DNA of 64,000 nucleotides from Escherichia coli (GCF_048403405.1 NZ_CP183129.1); one strand, 5' to 3'; positions 1 through 48,756 are shown, counted from the stretch's first letter. Program-made: numbers and translations. Notes: generated from the letters alone by a model not told the origin.

Positions 1-1
1 G

Positions 2-387
2 AAAGTGATTACCGATATTGCCGGCAGTTCCGCCTGGTTTGAACGCGGATTTGTCACCTACAGTAACGAAGCGAAAGCGCAAATGATCGGTGTACGCGAA
101 GAGACGCTGGCGCAGCATGGCGCGGTGAGCGAACCTGTCGTGGTGGAAATGGCGATAGGCGCACTGAAAGCGGCTCGTGCTGATTATGCTGTGTCTATTA
201 GTGGTATCGCCGGGCCGGATGGCGGCAGTGAAGAGAAGCCTGTCGGCACCGTCTGGTTTGCTTTTGCCACCGCCCGCGGCGAAGGTATTACCCGGCGGGA
301 ATGCTTCAGCGGTGACCGTGATGCGGTGCGTCGTCAGGCTACTGCGTATGCATTGCAGACCTTGTGGCAACAATTTCTACAAAACAC

Positions 388-5594: not shown

Positions 5595-5687
5595 GGTGAG
5601 GTGGCCGAGAGGCTGAAGGCGCTCCCCTGCTAAGGGAGTATGCGGTCAAAAGCTGCATCCGGGGTTCGAATCCCCGCCTCACCGCCA
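5595..5687 (+). tRNA. serV: tRNA-Ser (anticodon GCU)
   Basis: 93-nt cloverleaf with long variable arm, anticodon loop ctgctaa, ends in CCA; first gene of the cluster. Confidence 0.92.
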
Positions 5688-5690
5688 TTT

Positions 5691-5767
5691 GCATCCGTAG
5701 CTCAGCTGGATAGAGTACTCGGCTACGAACCGAGCGGTCGGAGGTTCGAATCCTCCCGGATGCACCA
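5691..5767 (+). tRNA. argV: tRNA-Arg (anticodon ACG)
   Basis: 77-nt sequence gcatccgtagctcagctggatagagtactcggctacgaaccgagcggtcggaggttcgaatcctcccggatgcacca; anticodon loop ctacgaa; copy name assigned by position. Confidence 0.9.
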
Positions 5768-5901
5768 TATTCTACGTACTTTCAGCGATGAAGGTATGGA
5801 AGAGGTGGCGGTAATAACCGCAGGCACCAGGGAGGATAACGTTGCTTTAGCAACGGCCCGAAGGGCGAGCCGCAAGGCGAGTAATCCTCCCGGATGCACC
5901 A
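5768..5901 (+). repeat. tRNA-Arg 3'-end-bearing paralogous element, copy A
   Basis: 134-nt element after the first tRNA-Arg, ending in a second copy of the tRNA-Arg 3' end (..tcctcccggatgcacca); paralogous to copy B at 6323-6455. Confidence 0.6.
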
Positions 5902-5965
5902 TCTCTTACTTGATACGGCTTTAGTAGCGGTATCAAAAAATCTGCAGTAAAGTAAGTTTCCCGAT

Positions 5966-6042
5966 GCATCCGTAGCTCAGCTGGATAGAGTACTCGGCTA
6001 CGAACCGAGCGGTCGGAGGTTCGAATCCTCCCGGATGCACCA
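5966..6042 (+). tRNA. argY: tRNA-Arg (anticodon ACG)
   Basis: Identical 77-nt tRNA-Arg sequence; copy name assigned by position. Confidence 0.88.
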
Positions 6043-6105
6043 TCTCTTACTTGATATGGCTTTAGTAGCGGTATCAATATCAGCAGTAAAATAAATTTTC
6101 CCGAT

Positions 6106-6182
6106 GCATCCGTAGCTCAGCTGGATAGAGTACTCGGCTACGAACCGAGCGGTCGGAGGTTCGAATCCTCCCGGATGCACCA
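6106..6182 (+). tRNA. argZ: tRNA-Arg (anticodon ACG)
   Basis: Identical 77-nt tRNA-Arg sequence; copy name assigned by position. Confidence 0.88.
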
Positions 6183-6245
6183 TCTCTTACTTGATATGGC
6201 TTTAGTAGCGATATCAATATCAGCAGTAAAATAAGTTTTCCCGAT

Positions 6246-6322
6246 GCATCCGTAGCTCAGCTGGATAGAGTACTCGGCTACGAACCGAGCGGTCGGAGGT
6301 TCGAATCCTCCCGGATGCACCA
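6246..6322 (+). tRNA. argQ: tRNA-Arg (anticodon ACG)
   Basis: Identical 77-nt tRNA-Arg sequence; copy name assigned by position. Confidence 0.88.
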
Positions 6323-6602: not shown

Positions 6603-7169
6603 ATGTACGAGCGTTATGCAGGTTTAATTTTTGATATGGATGGCACAATCCTGGATACGGAGCCTACGCACCGTAAAGCGTGGCGCGAAGTATTAGGGCA
6701 CTACGGTCTTCAGTACGATGTTCAGGCGATGATTGCGCTTAATGGCTCGCCCACCTGGCGTATTGCTCAGGCAATTATTGAGCTGAATCAGGCCGATCTC
6801 GACCCGCATGCGTTAGCGCGTGAAAAAACAGAAGCAGTAAGAAGTATGCTGCTGGATAGTGTCGAGCCGCTTCCTCTTGTTGAAGTGGTGAAAAGTTGGC
6901 ATGGTCGTCGCCCAATGGCTGTAGGAACGGGGAGTGAAAGCGTCATCGCTGAGGCATTGCTGGCGCACCTGGGATTACGCCGTTATTTTGACGCTGTCGT
7001 CGCTGCTGATCACGTCAAACACCATAAACCCGCGCCAGACACATTTTTGTTGTGCGCGCAGCGTATGGGCGTGCAACCGACACAGTGTGTGGTCTTTGAA
7101 GATGCCGATTTCGGTATTCAGGCGGCCCGTGCAGCAGGCATGGACGCTGTGGATGTTCGCTTGCTGTGA
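6603..7169 (+). CDS. yqaB: HAD-family sugar phosphatase (fructose-1-phosphate phosphatase)
   Basis: 188-aa ORF with HAD motif I FDMDGTILDTE near the N-terminus; conserved position. Confidence 0.9.
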   Translation: MYERYAGLIFDMDGTILDTEPTHRKAWREVLGHYGLQYDVQAMIALNGSPTWRIAQAIIELNQADLDPHALAREKTEAVRSMLLDSVEPLPLVEVVKSWHGRRPMAVGTGSESVIAEALLAHLGLRRYFDAVVAADHVKHHKPAPDTFLLCAQRMGVQPTQCVVFEDADFGIQAARAAGMDAVDVRLL

Positions 7170-7594
7170 GTGAAGCGTTATCGCTTTTCTCGTTGTTTGC
7201 CAGTAGTTTTCTCAGCGCTACACTATTACCCGGCAACTCCGAAGTCGTGCTGGTGGCAATGTTGCTTTCCGGGATCAGTCATCCCTGGGTTTTAGTTTTA
7301 ACAGCAACAATGGGTAATAGCCTTGGAGGGTTAACTAACGTTATCCTTGGGCGTTTCTTTCCATTGCGTAAAACATCGCGCTGGCAAGAGAAAGCTACCG
7401 GCTGGCTGAAACGCTATGGTGCAGTCACGCTATTATTAAGCTGGATGCCCGTGGTTGGCGATTTACTGTGTCTGTTAGCGGGATGGATGCGCATCTCGTG
7501 GGGACCGGTAATCTTTTTTTTGTGCCTTGGTAAAGCGTTACGCTATGTTGCAGTTGCAGCAGCTACCGTTCAGGGCATGATGTGGTGGCACTAA
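7166..7594 (+). CDS. yqaA: DedA/SNARE-associated family inner membrane protein
   Basis: 142-aa hydrophobic ORF overlapping yqaB stop by 4 nt; conserved position. Confidence 0.88.
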   Translation: MSEALSLFSLFASSFLSATLLPGNSEVVLVAMLLSGISHPWVLVLTATMGNSLGGLTNVILGRFFPLRKTSRWQEKATGWLKRYGAVTLLLSWMPVVGDLLCLLAGWMRISWGPVIFFLCLGKALRYVAVAAATVQGMMWWH

Positions 7595-7639
7595 TTGTAG
7601 GCCTGCACATATGGTCACCATTACAGTTATGCTAATTAA

Positions 7640-9223
<1,584 letters not shown>

Positions 9224-9231
9224 CAGAAAAG

Positions 9232-9304
9232 AAAAAGGCCACTCGTGAGTGGCCAAAATTTCATCTCTGAATTCAGGGATGATGATAACAAATGCGCGTC
9301 TTTC
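9232..9304 (-). ncRNA. micA: MicA (SraD) small regulatory RNA
   Basis: Reverse complement of 9232-9304 reads gaaagacgcgcatttgttatcatcatccctgaattcagagatgaaattttggccactcacgagtggccttttt, which matches my recollection of the E. coli MicA sequence; lies in the gshA-luxS gap and ends in a terminator hairpin. Confidence 0.88.
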
Positions 9305-9310
9305 ATATAC

Positions 9311-9338
9311 TCAGACTCGCCTGGGAAGAAAGAGTTCA
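9311..9338 (-). promoter_or_regulatory. SigmaE-type promoter of micA
   Basis: On the minus strand gaactc (-35), 16-nt spacer, tctga (-10), 6 nt before the MicA 5' end; close to sigmaE consensus GGAACTT / TCTGA. Confidence 0.55.
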
Positions 9339-9372
9339 GAAAATTTTTAAAAAAATTACCGGAGGTGGCTAA

Positions 9373-9888
9373 ATGCCGTTGTTAGATAGCTTCACAGTCG
9401 ATCATACCCGGATGGAAGCGCCTGCAGTTCGGGTGGCGAAAACAATGAACACCCCGCATGGCGACGCAATCACCGTGTTCGATCTGCGCTTCTGCGTGCC
9501 GAACAAAGAAGTGATGCCAGAAAGAGGGATCCATACCCTGGAGCACCTGTTTGCTGGTTTTATGCGTAACCATCTTAACGGTAATGGCGTAGAGATTATC
9601 GATATCTCGCCAATGGGCTGCCGCACCGGTTTTTATATGAGTCTGATTGGTACGCCAGATGAGCAGCGTGTCGCTGATGCCTGGAAAGCGGCAATGGAGG
9701 ACGTGCTGAAAGTGCAGGATCAGAATCAGATCCCGGAACTGAACGTCTACCAGTGTGGCACTTACCAGATGCACTCGTTGCAGGAAGCACAGGATATTGC
9801 GCGTAGCATTCTGGAACGTGACGTGCGCATCAACAGCAACGAAGAACTGGCGCTGCCGAAAGAGAAGTTGCAGGAACTGCACATCTAG
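9373..9888 (+). CDS. luxS: S-ribosylhomocysteine lyase (autoinducer-2 synthase)
   Basis: 171-aa [24 protein letters not shown].. with HTLEH metal-binding motif. Confidence 0.96.
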
Positions 9889-9914
9889 TCAGTAAACTAT
9901 CTTCACAATTAATT

Positions 9915-9945
9915 GAAAAAAGCCAGTTCAAATGAACTGGCTTAG
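9915..9945. terminator. Bidirectional intrinsic terminator between convergent luxS and emrB
   Basis: Perfect 9-bp stem agccagttc/gaactggct with 4-nt loop, preceded by an A-run and followed by T-rich sequence. Confidence 0.6.
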
Positions 9946-9951
9946 TTGTAC

Positions 9952-11490
9952 TTAGTGCGCACCACCTCCGCCGCCACCTGCGCCAAATGGCGGTTTAGCA
10001 AACCACACCAGCCCCAGCAAGACGAGGAATATCCCGGCTGACATCCAGAAGATCTCATTGGCGGAAATAATCAGCCCCTGATTGGTGATCTGCTGGGCAA
10101 TCCAGCCTGATGCCTGCTGTTGCGTCATCCCAAGCCCTTCCAGTTGACTATACATCGCCTGGGCATTCGGGTTGAACGGGTTTACCGACTCAGTCAACTG
10201 CGCATGGTGCATCGACTCGCGGTTGGTCCACATGGTAGTGGTTATCGAGGTGCCGATAGACCCCGCCAGCGTTCGCGTAAAGTTGGAGAGGCTCGATGCT
10301 GCCGCCAGTCGTTCCGGTGGCAAACCAGACAGCGTAATGGTGGTCAGCGGCATAAAGAAGCAGGCCACCGCAAAACCCTGGATAAACTGCGGCCAGGCCG
10401 ACGCGCCAAAATCCATACCAGGTTCAAAGGTATAGGCACGCCAGTAAAAGCAGACGGCATACATAATAAAGCTGAAGGTTACCAGCCGCCGCATATCCAG
10501 TTTATGCGCGAAGCGGCCAATAATCGGCGACAGGATCACCGGAATAATCCCTACCGGCGCAGAGGCCAAACCTGCCCAGGTCGCCGTGTAACCGTAGACC
10601 TCCTGCAACAACTGCGGCAGCAGAACAATCGCGCCGAAGTAGAGCATATACGCGAGGCTGATACACAAGCAGCCGATGGTGAAGTTGCGCGACTTAAACA
10701 ACGACAGATCGACTATCGGGTTATCGTCGGTCAGCTCCCAGACAATCAGGAAGCAGATAGCCACCACTGCCACCACGGTAAGGATGATAATTTCCTGTGA
10801 TGAAAACCAGTCCAGCTCTTTACCGCGGTCGAGCATAATCTGCAGGCTACCGATACCAATAACCAGCAGTGCCAGCCCCACGGCATCAATCCGCCGCCGT
10901 TCGGTGCGGGTTTCACGTCCGCGCAGGGTTTGCAGTGTCATCAACACCACCGCCACGCCAATCGGTACGTTGATGAAGAATATCCAGCCCCAGTGGTAAT
11001 TGTCACTGATATACCCGCCGAGGATCGGGCCGCAAATTGGCGCAACAATCACCGTCATCGACCACAACGCCAGCGCGATCGAGCGTTTGGCTGGCGGGTA
11101 GTTATTCAGCAATAGACTTTGCGAAAGCGGAATTAACGGCCCGGCGACAATCCCCTGAATCACGCGGAAGAAGATCAGCATATTCAGGCTGCTGGAGACA
11201 CCACACGCCCACGACGCAATAGCAAAGGCGATGGTGGACCAGAGGAACAGTTTCACTTCCCCGACGCGCTTTGCCAGCCAGCCGGTAAGCGGGATCGAGA
11301 TGGCATTCGCCACCCCGAAAGAAGTGATTACCCACGTTCCCTGGCTGAGCGATGAGCCCAGATTCCCGGCGATAGTGGGGATCGCCACGTTAGCAATGGT
11401 GGAGTCCAGCACCTGCATGAATGTCGCCAGTGACAGCGCAATCGTCATAATGACCAGTTGCGCGCCTTCCAGCGGTTTTTGCTGTTGCAT
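9952..11490 (-). CDS. emrB: Multidrug efflux MFS transporter EmrB
   Basis: ORF track 9952-11499; likely ATG at 11490 (MQQQKPLEGAQLVIMTIALSLATFMQVLDST..); multi-TM MFS protein downstream of emrA. Confidence 0.94.
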   Translation of the reverse strand: MQQQKPLEGAQLVIMTIALSLATFMQVLDSTIANVAIPTIAGNLGSSLSQGTWVITSFGVANAISIPLTGWLAKRVGEVKLFLWSTIAFAIASWACGVSSSLNMLIFFRVIQGIVAGPLIPLSQSLLLNNYPPAKRSIALALWSMTVIVAPICGPILGGYISDNYHWGWIFFINVPIGVAVVLMTLQTLRGRETRTERRRIDAVGLALLVIGIGSLQIMLDRGKELDWFSSQEIIILTVVAVVAICFLIVWELTDDNPIVDLSLFKSRNFTIGCLCISLAYMLYFGAIVLLPQLLQEVYGYTATWAGLASAPVGIIPVILSPIIGRFAHKLDMRRLVTFSFIMYAVCFYWRAYTFEPGMDFGASAWPQFIQGFAVACFFMPLTTITLSGLPPERLAAASSLSNFTRTLAGSIGTSITTTMWTNRESMHHAQLTESVNPFNPNAQAMYSQLEGLGMTQQQASGWIAQQITNQGLIISANEIFWMSAGIFLVLLGLVWFAKPPFGAGGGGGGAH

Positions 11491-11506
11491 CACACGCACC
11501 TCTGGA

Positions 11507-12679
11507 TTAGCCAGCGTTAGCTTTTACGATATCGTCGATCAGTTTATTGACAGGTGCCAGGCTGATTTCACGCGCGGTGCTTACCGCTACCGGTGTGGAA
11601 CGTACTTTATTTGCCAGTACCTGACCGTCACGGTTAGTGGTATTGACGCTCACCAGCGTGGACAAACCGATACGCAGCGGGTATTGCTCGAGCTGTTTCT
11701 GGTCCAGTTCAATACGAACAGGCAGACGCTGAACGACTTTGATCCAGTTACCGGTAGCATTTTGCGCCGGAAGCAGTGAGAACGCGCTACCTGTGCCCAT
11801 ATCCAGACCAACCACTTTACCGGTGTATTTCACATCATCGCCGTAAATATCGGTGGTGATAGTGACCGGCTGACCGATACGCATATTGGCAATCTGCGTC
11901 TCTTTAAAGTTGGCATCCACCCACATATTGGTGGCTGGAACGACCGCCATCAGCGGCGTCGTTGGGCTAATTTGTGCCCCAGGCTGTACCGCGCGGCGGG
12001 AGACATAACCGGTCATCGGACTGACAATACGAGTACGCTCCAGCGCCAGCCAGGCGTTACGTACTTCGGTGGCAGCCTGTTGCACGGCAGGCTGATCTTC
12101 CAGTTTAGTCCCCAGAATCATCGCCTGATTGGCATTGTATTGTTGAATAGCGACGTCCAGTTGTGCCTGGGCACTGGTGACGGCGTCGCGGGCGTGTTGC
12201 AGCTCTTCGCGACCAATCAGGTTGGCATTGCCCAGCGGCACACGGCGGTTGTAGTCGCTTTGTGCTTTCGCGAGGGCGATTTTTTGCACCTCAATATTCG
12301 CCTGCAACTGTTTGCTGTTAATCATCAGCTGGTGGGTTTGGCGAACGCTTGAAGCCAGTGCAGTTTTGGCTTTTTCAAACGCCTGGCGAGCATCTGTCGG
12401 GTCGAGAGTGACCAGCACGTCGCCTTCTTTTACAAAATCGGTGTTATCGGCCCAGACTTTCGTCACGCTGCCAGACACCTGAGACATAATTTGAATCTGA
12501 TTCCCTGCCACGTATGCGTCATCGGTTTCTTCGAAATGACGCAGTACTAAAAACCAATAAATCCCTATCGCTACGGCAATAATTATAAAGAGCAAGGTGA
12601 GAAGGAGGAGCAGACGCTTACGTTTGCCGCTCTTCTTTACCGGTTGCTGCGGGGTTTGAGTCTCCGCATTTGCGCTCAT
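11507..12679 (-). CDS. emrA: Multidrug efflux membrane fusion protein EmrA
   Basis: ORF track 11507-12691 (GTG); ATG at 12679 preceded by ggagaa SD; single N-terminal TM then coiled-coil/HlyD-like domain. Confidence 0.94.
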   Translation of the reverse strand: MSANAETQTPQQPVKKSGKRKRLLLLLTLLFIIIAVAIGIYWFLVLRHFEETDDAYVAGNQIQIMSQVSGSVTKVWADNTDFVKEGDVLVTLDPTDARQAFEKAKTALASSVRQTHQLMINSKQLQANIEVQKIALAKAQSDYNRRVPLGNANLIGREELQHARDAVTSAQAQLDVAIQQYNANQAMILGTKLEDQPAVQQAATEVRNAWLALERTRIVSPMTGYVSRRAVQPGAQISPTTPLMAVVPATNMWVDANFKETQIANMRIGQPVTITTDIYGDDVKYTGKVVGLDMGTGSAFSLLPAQNATGNWIKVVQRLPVRIELDQKQLEQYPLRIGLSTLVSVNTTNRDGQVLANKVRSTPVAVSTAREISLAPVNKLIDDIVKANAG

Positions 12680-32082: not shown

Positions 32083-32246
32083 TGCCGGAGAGCGGCTCCG
32101 CCTTACCCGACCTGGATTCTCGTAGGCCGGACAAGACGCAAAGCGTCGCCTCCGGCATGGTGCGCCGAATGTCGGATGCGGCGTAAACGCCTTATCCGAC
32201 CTACATTTTCGTGGGCCGGACAAGACGCGCAGCGTCGCCTCCGGCA
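32083..32246. repeat. REP/BIME cluster in the gabT-gabP intergenic region
   Basis: Four REP-like palindromic units in alternating orientation (e.g. gccggacaagacgcaaagcgtcgcctccggcatgg and gtcggatgcggcgtaaacgccttatccgacctac). Confidence 0.8.
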
Positions 32247-48393: not shown

Positions 48394-48756
48394 TGGTGGA
48401 GCTGGCGGGAGTTGAACCCGCGTCCGAAATTCCTACGTCCTCGGTACTACATGCTTAGTCAGTCTTTACATTCGCTTGCCAGCTGCGGACGGACACGCCA
48501 CTAACAAACTAGCCTGATTAAGTTTTAACGCTTCAACCCCAGGCAGGGCTTCCACGCGATCTCTTTTGGGTTTGACCTCTCTTGATCCCCGTCCTAAGAG
48601 CGGAGGCTAGGGAGAGAGGGCTCTAAGCAGGTTATTAAGCTGCTAAAGCGTAGTTTTCGTCGTTTGCGACTATTTTTTGCGGCTTTTTACGAGGCCAACC
48701 GCCCCTCGGCATGCACCTTGGGTTTCGCAAATCCCGTCGAATCCAGAATCAGCCCC
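48394..48756 (-). ncRNA. ssrA: tmRNA (SsrA, 10Sa RNA)
   Basis: 363 nt; minus-strand sequence begins ggggctgattctggattcgacggg and ends ..ctcccgccagctccacca; contains the tag ORF gcaaacgacgaaaactacgctttagcagcttaa (ANDENYALAA). Confidence 0.97.

Follow-up and report, generated by a model that had tools for sequence, protein, structure and literature searches.

MicA is a small RNA that has been under study since 2001, and its promoter, its targets and its overlap with luxS have all been published. Together with RybB and MicL, it belongs to the repressing arm of the sigmaE regulon (PMC4618604, PMC1804206), and it has been reported to inhibit the translation of ompA in an Hfq-dependent manner, which is followed by decay of the mRNA (PMC1851643, PMC2956633, PMC4618604). 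In E. coli with the same sequence as analysed here, MicA was undetectable in a delta-rpoE strain and was induced by rpoE overexpression and by envelope stress (Udekwu & Wagner 2007, PMC1851643). The sigmaE dependence of micA has also been published for Salmonella (PMC1804206; review PMC4618604), where each promoter box shows one or two mismatches to the sigmaE consensus of -35 GGAACTTTT and -10 GTCAAA (PMC1804206). As for the neighbouring luxS, a sigmaS-dependent promoter P1 has been mapped to a start G at -332, inside gshA (Udekwu 2010, PMC2956633). The same work describes a short luxS species that overlaps MicA with the 14-15 nt at its 5' end. The long species are converted to it in a MicA- and RNase III-dependent manner; LuxS protein showed no detectable change on MicA overexpression (PMC2956633).

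In this work, we have analysed a stretch of 64,000 nucleotides from Escherichia coli (hereafter the window, with positions counted from its first letter). Its minus strand from 9304 downwards reads GAAAGACGCGCATTTGTTATCATCATCCCTGAATTCAGAGATGAAATTTTGGCCACTCACGAGTGGCCTTTTT / GAAAGACGCGCATTTGTTATCATCATCCCTGAATTCAGAGATGAAATTTTGGCCACTCACGAGTGGCCTTTTTCTTTTCT. The Rfam model RF00078 (MicA) matches 9304-9233 on this strand with 83.9 bits, which exceeds the gathering threshold of 41 (E = 1.1e-12), and the match is full length, covering model positions 1-75 of 75. The same match was recovered when the whole window was scanned, and MicA was the sole match when 7000-12000 was scanned permissively with all 4227 Rfam families. 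When the window was compared with K-12 micA (b4442) and its flanks, 200 of 200 nt were identical, from -70 to +130 of micA. In the K-12 MG1655 record (NC_000913), the entry 'ncRNA micA b4442, small regulatory RNA MicA' occupies 2814802-2814874; it is flanked by luxS and gshA, both of which are on the other strand. K-12 coordinates have been converted throughout as window = 9304 + 2814802 - K-12 position. A preliminary description of this DNA had placed MicA on the minus strand, with a comparison to the Rfam model as the check. The RF00078 score and the identity to K-12 micA and its flanks bear this out. The sRNA, its sigmaE-type promoter and its neighbours had been read there from the raw sequence with coordinates that are right to the base.

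Overall, 9229-9304 on the minus strand is very probably micA of Escherichia coli, a trans-acting sRNA of 72-76 nt whose function would be transferred from K-12 and Salmonella by identity (probability about 0.97). The identity and anatomy of the element, the conservation of its promoter, structure and synteny, and its potential to pair with ompA have been obtained directly in the present analysis. The MicA element is already known in every respect examined, and the call serves as a positive control for reading from the sequence, being no discovery in itself.

Of the 5426 complete E. coli genomes searched with a 401-nt query across the region, 5423 contain it, and 5271 do so with at least 99% identity. 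The query is 100% identical to many complete genomes and always lies under the annotations gshA and luxS. In the best-matching, automatically annotated RefSeq E. coli genomes (100% over the region), luxS and gshA are the only genes annotated under the match, and the curated K-12 record has micA. That is, micA is missing from the annotation of many genomes that clearly carry the sRNA.

The features of the locus are collected in Table 1, together with the other RNA features that Rfam finds in the window.

Table 1. Coordinates of the features at the micA locus and of other RNA features in the window; MicA numbering starts at G 9304.
Feature	Position	Strand	Details and basis
gshA (glutamate-cysteine ligase), 518 codons	7667..9223	+	ORF and RefSeq annotation of 100%-identical E. 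coli DNA; convergent with micA
MicA sRNA (very probable)	9229..9304	-	5' end = G 9304; RF00078, K-12 identity, Term-seq
U-tail UUUUUCUU	9229..9236	-	7/8 T; Term-seq end 9229
Terminator hairpin GGCCACU-CACG-AGUGGCC, 7 bp, 5 G-C	9237..9254, MicA nt 51-68	both	Perfect palindromic stem
A/U-rich linker AAAUUUU	9255..9261, MicA nt 44-50	-	Sequence reading
Stem-loop 1, CAUC.CUG / CAG.GAUG, loop AAUU	9262..9281, MicA nt 24-43	-	Rfam structure line and MFE fold
Target-pairing (seed) region GCGCAUUUGUUAUCAUC	9281..9297, MicA nt 8-24	-	Unpaired in predicted fold and Rfam consensus
Single-stranded 5' region	MicA nt 1-23	-	Predicted fold
sigmaE-type -10 element GTCTGA	9311..9316, -12..-7	-	Sequence; given as TCTGA, 9315-9311, in the preliminary description
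sigmaE-type -35 element GAACTC (tGAACTC 9338-9332)	9332..9337, -33..-28	-	16-nt spacer to TCTGA
T-run (A-run on plus strand, in luxS leader)	9349..9355	-	Conservation
luxS (S-ribosylhomocysteine lyase), 171 codons, ATG 9373	9373..9888	+	ORF and RefSeq annotation; divergent from micA
Five tRNA genes, cluster just upstream of yqaB	5595-6319	+	Rfam
naRNA4 (REP-derived) element	32125-32201	-	Rfam
One more tRNA	40437-40509	+	Rfam
tmRNA	48394-48756	-	Rfam, 292.8 bits

The predicted fold of MicA consists of a free 5' end, stem-loop 1, an A/U linker and a Rho-independent terminator with a U-tail. The MFE fold has -21.2 kcal/mol against -13.2 +/- 2.6 for shuffles (z = -3.1), and reproduces both Rfam helices. 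A terminator scan called the hairpin 9237-9254 on the minus strand only, with the tail TTTTTCTTTT. The linker, which we take to be the internal Hfq-binding site of MicA (putative here), is A/U-rich in all aligned homologues among the matches listed. The 3' end depends on the source: it lies at 9233 in the Rfam match, at 9232 in the K-12 annotation (73 nt) and at 9229 in published Term-seq data (76 nt, ...GGCCUUUUUCUU). The last of these corresponds to K-12 2814877, and was found in three of three conditions (PMC7815308 supplementary file 1, Adams et al. 2021). We have also considered a 48-codon ORF at 9160-9306 on the minus strand as a coding feature and rejected it, as the A and T of its ATG are upstream of the mapped +1 G and thus outside the RNA.

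The minus-strand sequence preceding the +1 G is ctGAACTCtttcttcccaggcgaGTCTGAgtatat, with 6 nt between the end of the -10 box at 9311 and the G at 9304. These boxes fit the sigmaE consensus with the same kind of mismatches as those of Salmonella micA. The pattern GAACT-N17-TCTGA has one match in the 64-kb window, where chance predicts 0.11, and one or more matches turn up in 10 of 100 shuffles; taken alone, this count appears mildly significant, i.e., weakly improbable. Comparative conservation is the stronger evidence for a promoter. In 113 distinct 200-mers among the matches listed, A-32, A-31, C-30, T-11, C-10, A-7 and T-1 are invariant. Conservation in the same set, again among the matches listed, reaches 97-99% at T-27 and T-26, 95% at G-12 and 96% at T-9, while the spacer from -25 to -17 is variable (0.1-0.8 bit per position). 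At the sequence level, the sigmaE-type promoter gaactc-N16-tctga of the preliminary description therefore holds: its positions are exact, and its boxes form conserved islands on either side of a variable spacer. The sigmaE dependence of the present micA is supported by this sequence together with the literature on the identical promoter, from which it would be carried over.

Further upstream, a T-run at -51..-46 (80-99% T in 113 distinct sequences, among the matches listed) is as conserved as the promoter boxes. On the plus strand, it is an A-run that sits 6-12 nt before the luxS Shine-Dalgarno sequence GGAGG at 9361-9365. It agrees with the 'AT-rich element upstream of the -35 box' of micA described by Udekwu & Wagner 2007 (PMC1851643). 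The T-run at 9349-9355 may be a candidate UP-like element for micA, an element for luxS translation or for sRNA/Hfq binding, or both.

The comparative set behind these numbers was obtained by a search for the MicA 5' region (nt 5-27, with one degenerate base) in bacterial genomes, each species being represented by one, which gave at least 120 loci. They are from Escherichia, Citrobacter, Enterobacter, Klebsiella, Pantoea, Erwinia, Serratia, Yersinia, Rahnella, Pectobacterium, Dickeya, Edwardsiella, Hafnia and others. As this pattern was itself the means of retrieval, conservation of MicA nt 5-27 is circular and unusable as evidence; the circularity does not extend to the promoter, the stem-loops, the tail or the synteny. 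In 87 distinct MicA homologues among the matches listed, 98.8% of the helix cells pair, and this value falls to 28-52% in a control where the 3' partners were slid by 1-3 columns. For stem-loop 1, 97-100% of the helix cells are paired (87 distinct sequences, among the matches listed), and its closing pair shows a compensatory change from G-C to A-U in the same set of listed matches. In the terminator stem, six of the seven pairs are invariant, and the innermost one occurs as A-U, U-A or G-C in a compensatory manner (among the matches listed); the window has the U-A form, common to Citrobacter and E. albertii. Changes on both sides are seen at 2 of 14 pairs among the matches listed, with 12 of 14 showing none on both sides and 8 of 14 never varying. 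Because 12 of the 14 pairs lack a two-sided change, the covariation support is thin, and it is mainly conservation, energy and the curated Rfam model that support the structure. The MicA-side U-tail has 7 T in 8 positions in all 89 distinct contexts (89/89, among the matches listed).

Divergent luxS is found in 117 of 117 and convergent gshA in 113 of 113 related loci with enough flank (among the matches listed), where GshA is 59 to 98% identical to the window protein among the matches listed. In the window, the gshA stop codon TGA occupies 9221-9223, and the luxS leader is antisense both to MicA and to the micA promoter, which lie wholly inside it. This matches what had been stated at the outset, namely that MicA is antisense in the gshA-luxS gap with its promoter overlapping the luxS upstream region, an arrangement present in every related locus with flank among the matches listed. 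The overlap was right and also already published, because the luxS transcripts had been mapped by Udekwu (2010, PMC2956633). With the primer sequences given in that paper, the P1 start is placed at window 9041. A sigma70-like match, ATGATA-N18-TATACT at 9282-9311 on the plus strand, was considered as a luxS promoter and rejected, being at chance level with 1 found against 1.0 expected. It lies inside micA, and transcription from it would begin about 25 nt downstream of the short luxS 5' end that has been published.

For the pairing with ompA, the K-12 ompA sequence was used, since the strain's own ompA is outside the window. MicA nt 8-24 pairs with -21..-6 of the K-12 ompA mRNA (GAUGAUAACGAGGCGC), across the Shine-Dalgarno region, at -23.1 kcal/mol. 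Shuffled seeds reach -10.6 +/- 2.7 kcal/mol, and 1 of 2000 shuffles is as good as the MicA seed with ompA. This seed test replaced a comparison of full-length MicA with the whole ompA leader (RNAduplex), which gave an unrealistic 65-nt interaction (-44.5 vs -36.9 +/- 4.4 for shuffles).

Based on the above analyses and on what has been published for the identical sequence, the following course of events may be proposed. The sigmaE RNA polymerase would transcribe micA from the -35 GAACTC and -10 GTCTGA elements with the start at G 9304, and the intrinsic terminator, i.e., the hairpin 9254-9237 with the U-tail to 9229, would end the RNA. The single-stranded nt 8-24 would then pair with the ompA ribosome-binding region and, as published, also with phoP and several envelope-protein mRNAs. 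With the help of Hfq, on which it would depend, this pairing should block translation and speed mRNA decay. As misfolded outer-membrane proteins activate sigmaE, the cell would in this way halt their further synthesis. In cis, MicA is complementary over its whole length to the long luxS leader transcripts with starts inside gshA, for which MicA- and RNase III-dependent processing has been published, and the hairpin 9237-9254 may also mark the 3' end of the gshA mRNA in some conditions. The sigmaE dependence, the Hfq dependence, the target repression, the luxS processing and the transcript ends in this scheme are adopted from the literature on the identical sequence and should apply here to the extent that sequence identity carries them.

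Some further features of the window should be mentioned. The tmRNA lies about 39 kb from micA in the window, and on the K-12 map ssrA is, as we assume, roughly 59 kb from micA. If this K-12 distance holds, colinearity between the window and K-12 is broken along this stretch. A second hairpin between convergent genes, AAGCCAGTTCAAATGAACTGGCTT at 9920-9943 with a 10-bp stem, is located between luxS (+) and emrB (-) and was called terminator-like on both strands. The published Term-seq 3' end of the luxS strand, K-12 2814159 or 2814160 (window 9947 or 9946), is 3-4 nt past this stem (PMC7815308). A Rho-dependent termination region antisense to gshA has been reported at K-12 2815245 plus, which is about window 8861 minus (PMC7815308 supplementary file 2). 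It lies about 370 nt beyond the MicA hairpin on the MicA strand, which suggests Rho as the factor that stops MicA read-through, or some other antisense transcript, at about 8861.

The hairpin shared with gshA is the only claim of the preliminary description that goes beyond the textbook. There the hairpin was said to lie 9 nt after the gshA stop and to be able to serve both convergent transcripts. The distance has to be corrected: 9 nt is the distance to the annotated MicA end at 9232, and the stem 9237-9254 begins after a gap of 13 nt (9224-9236). With respect to the sharing, the stem is indeed present on both strands, and Term-seq ends of the gshA strand fall there in two of three conditions, but the U-tract on the gshA side is absent and P1 reads through. 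More specifically, all pairs of the stem are Watson-Crick, and it also forms on the gshA-sense strand (9205-9275: -18 kcal/mol, z = -2.5). The gshA-sense tail AAAAUUUC / AAAATTTC has 4 T in 8 positions, too few for a U-tract, and the terminator scan called no plus-strand terminator at the hairpin. Fewer than 5 T are found in the 8 nt after the stem on the gshA side in 87 of 89 distinct contexts among the matches listed. In 86 of 102 Enterobacterales species (84%, among the matches listed) a gap of 8-13 nt separates the gshA stop from the stem, which leaves no room for a separate gshA terminator. In the tightest cases, where the tail is TTTTCTTTTTA, the MicA U-tract ends in the complement of the gshA stop TAA, and the 3' ends of the two genes overlap.

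Published ends of the gshA strand were looked up in Term-seq data, and the layout of the table (50 nt, the 3'-end base, 10 nt) was checked against the sgrS and tRNA-Asp entries. In M63 glucose, 177,654 reads support an end at K-12 2814847 (window 9259, ...GGCCAAAAU), 5 nt beyond the stem, and in LB at OD 0.4 an end at 2814861 (window 9245) is at the loop apex; both are classed by Adams et al. 2021 as the 'primary' gshA end (PMC7815308). A third, strong end, at K-12 2814914 minus (window 9192 plus), is inside the gshA ORF with 305,886 reads, presumably in LB at OD 2.0 (PMC7815308). This position precedes the gshA stop by 31 nt and luxS by 181 nt, and it follows the P1 start at 9041 by 151 nt; no terminator-like hairpin was found before it. 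It could be a premature end or a site of processing within the long luxS leader; alternatively, an RNA of about 150 nt could end here. The three ends at 9259, 9245 and 9192 are compatible with termination, exonuclease trimming or processing. That the hairpin helps to define the gshA 3' end is plausible; that it actually terminates gshA transcription seems possible but rather doubtful.

Three other explanations have to be weighed for this locus. For the view that the MicA-like stretch is a chance resemblance or an inactive relic, unexpressed in the present genome, it can be said that the automatic NCBI annotation of the best-matching E. coli genomes gives luxS and gshA alone under the match. 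However, the missing annotation is a property of the pipeline output, as the K-12 record carries micA. The match to the curated MicA model has E = 1e-12, and promoter, RNA and terminator are 100% identical to K-12, where the transcript ends are mapped, so that this explanation is extremely improbable. The locus might also act mainly in cis instead of in trans, as an antisense control of luxS and perhaps also of the gshA 3' end, in which case MicA or its transcription would set the expression of the AI-2 synthase via duplex formation, RNase III cleavage or transcriptional interference. The location of MicA and its promoter wholly within the luxS leader, the divergent luxS in 117 of 117 loci (among the matches listed) and the MicA- and RNase III-dependent shift from long to short luxS transcripts (PMC2956633) would agree with this, as would the biofilm phenotypes that luxS-region deletions cause through MicA in Salmonella (review PMC4618604). 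On the other hand, LuxS protein is unchanged on MicA overexpression (PMC2956633), and the review calls the luxS effect 'unclear' (PMC4618604). An invariant 5' seed and a strong pairing with the ompA ribosome-binding site are predicted by a function in trans, whereas perfect antisense complementarity needs no conserved seed, and the trans targets are experimentally established (PMC4618604, PMC1804206). Both the cis-antisense explanation as a whole and its proposed control of AI-2 synthase expression are thus quite unlikely as the main role of the locus.

The remaining explanation adds to the reading of the element as micA rather than competing with it: the hairpin 9237-9254 would be a true bidirectional terminator for MicA and the gshA mRNA, acting either intrinsically or through collision or pausing. 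Its perfect palindromic stem folds on the gshA-sense strand, two gshA-strand ends classed as 'primary' are found at 9259 (M63) and 9245 (LB OD 0.4) (PMC7815308), and no other terminator fits between stop and stem where these are 8-13 nt apart (86 of 102 species, among the matches listed). In addition, Udekwu reports no evidence of a gshA-luxS polycistronic message (PMC2956633), and bidirectional terminators without intrinsic features, as sites of pausing or collision, have been described for hundreds of convergent pairs in E. coli (bioRxiv 10.1101/2022.10.23.513370). Nevertheless, the tail AAAAUUUC was not called by the scan and is poor in T in nearly all contexts (fewer than 5 in 8 in 87 of 89, among the matches listed). 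An end 5 nt past the stem would equally be given by 3'-to-5' exonuclease trimming to the hairpin, the LB OD 0.4 end is exactly at the palindrome apex and is not a product of intrinsic termination, and in LB at OD 2.0 the gshA-strand end is elsewhere, at 9192. Moreover, the luxS P1 transcript that starts at -332 runs across the hairpin, yielding an mRNA longer than 800 nt (PMC2956633), and therefore any termination on the gshA side should be leaky. Taken together, we regard a true bidirectional terminator as a tentative possibility that is somewhat more likely to be wrong than right. A full-text search of the literature for 'bidirectional terminator' together with MicA gave nothing bearing on the gshA-micA pair. 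A SEnd-seq list of overlapping bidirectional terminators in E. coli is reportedly available from Ju et al. 2019.

A more specific version is that the hairpin acts as a conditional, collision-type bidirectional terminator gated by sigmaE firing of the micA promoter. It leans on the tight spacing of stop and stem, on the gshA 3' end being at three positions according to growth condition, and on the lack of a U-tract on the gshA side, and we consider it unlikely. If it were true, converging polymerases and the MicA duplex would set both the run-on of gshA and P1 transcripts into luxS and the end of the gshA mRNA, and envelope stress would be coupled in cis to the synthesis of glutathione and AI-2. 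In any case, the distance from stop to stem and the one-sided U-tract frame the question, which is whether gshA transcription is terminated at the hairpin or its 3' end protected there, and what effect micA has on read-through into luxS.

Compared with known bidirectional terminators (Ju et al. 2019; Wang et al. 2022/2023), the present locus likewise has one hairpin between converging units with 3' ends reported on both strands at or beside it, and the weaker side, here gshA, is likewise without the features of a canonical intrinsic terminator. It is unlike those convergent pairs, and its membership in the class is putative, in that one partner is the conditionally expressed gene of a 75-nt sRNA instead of an mRNA, the ends on the gshA side vary by condition, and a luxS transcript reads through the hairpin. 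Like the cis-encoded antisense RNAs that cover 5' leaders, MicA is perfectly complementary to the long luxS leader, with RNase III processing (PMC2956633); unlike them, its established activity is in trans via a short imperfect seed, and no effect on LuxS protein was seen.

RybB and MicL, the other sigmaE-dependent sRNAs of enterobacteria, share the logic of MicA, i.e., a sigmaE promoter, Hfq dependence and a conserved 5' seed, and all three repress the mRNAs of outer-membrane proteins or lipoproteins, by which the feedback loop of envelope stress is closed (PMC1804206, PMC4618604). They differ from MicA in their unrelated sequences, their loci and their target sets, and the MicA model alone matches here. 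With MicA itself (SraD, psrA10; RF00078; K-12 b4442), the element of the window is identical in sequence and alike in length, in its two stem-loops and U-tail, and in its sigmaE-type promoter. Its position between gshA and luxS and its complementarity to the ompA translation-initiation region are alike as well, with no difference from K-12 micA.
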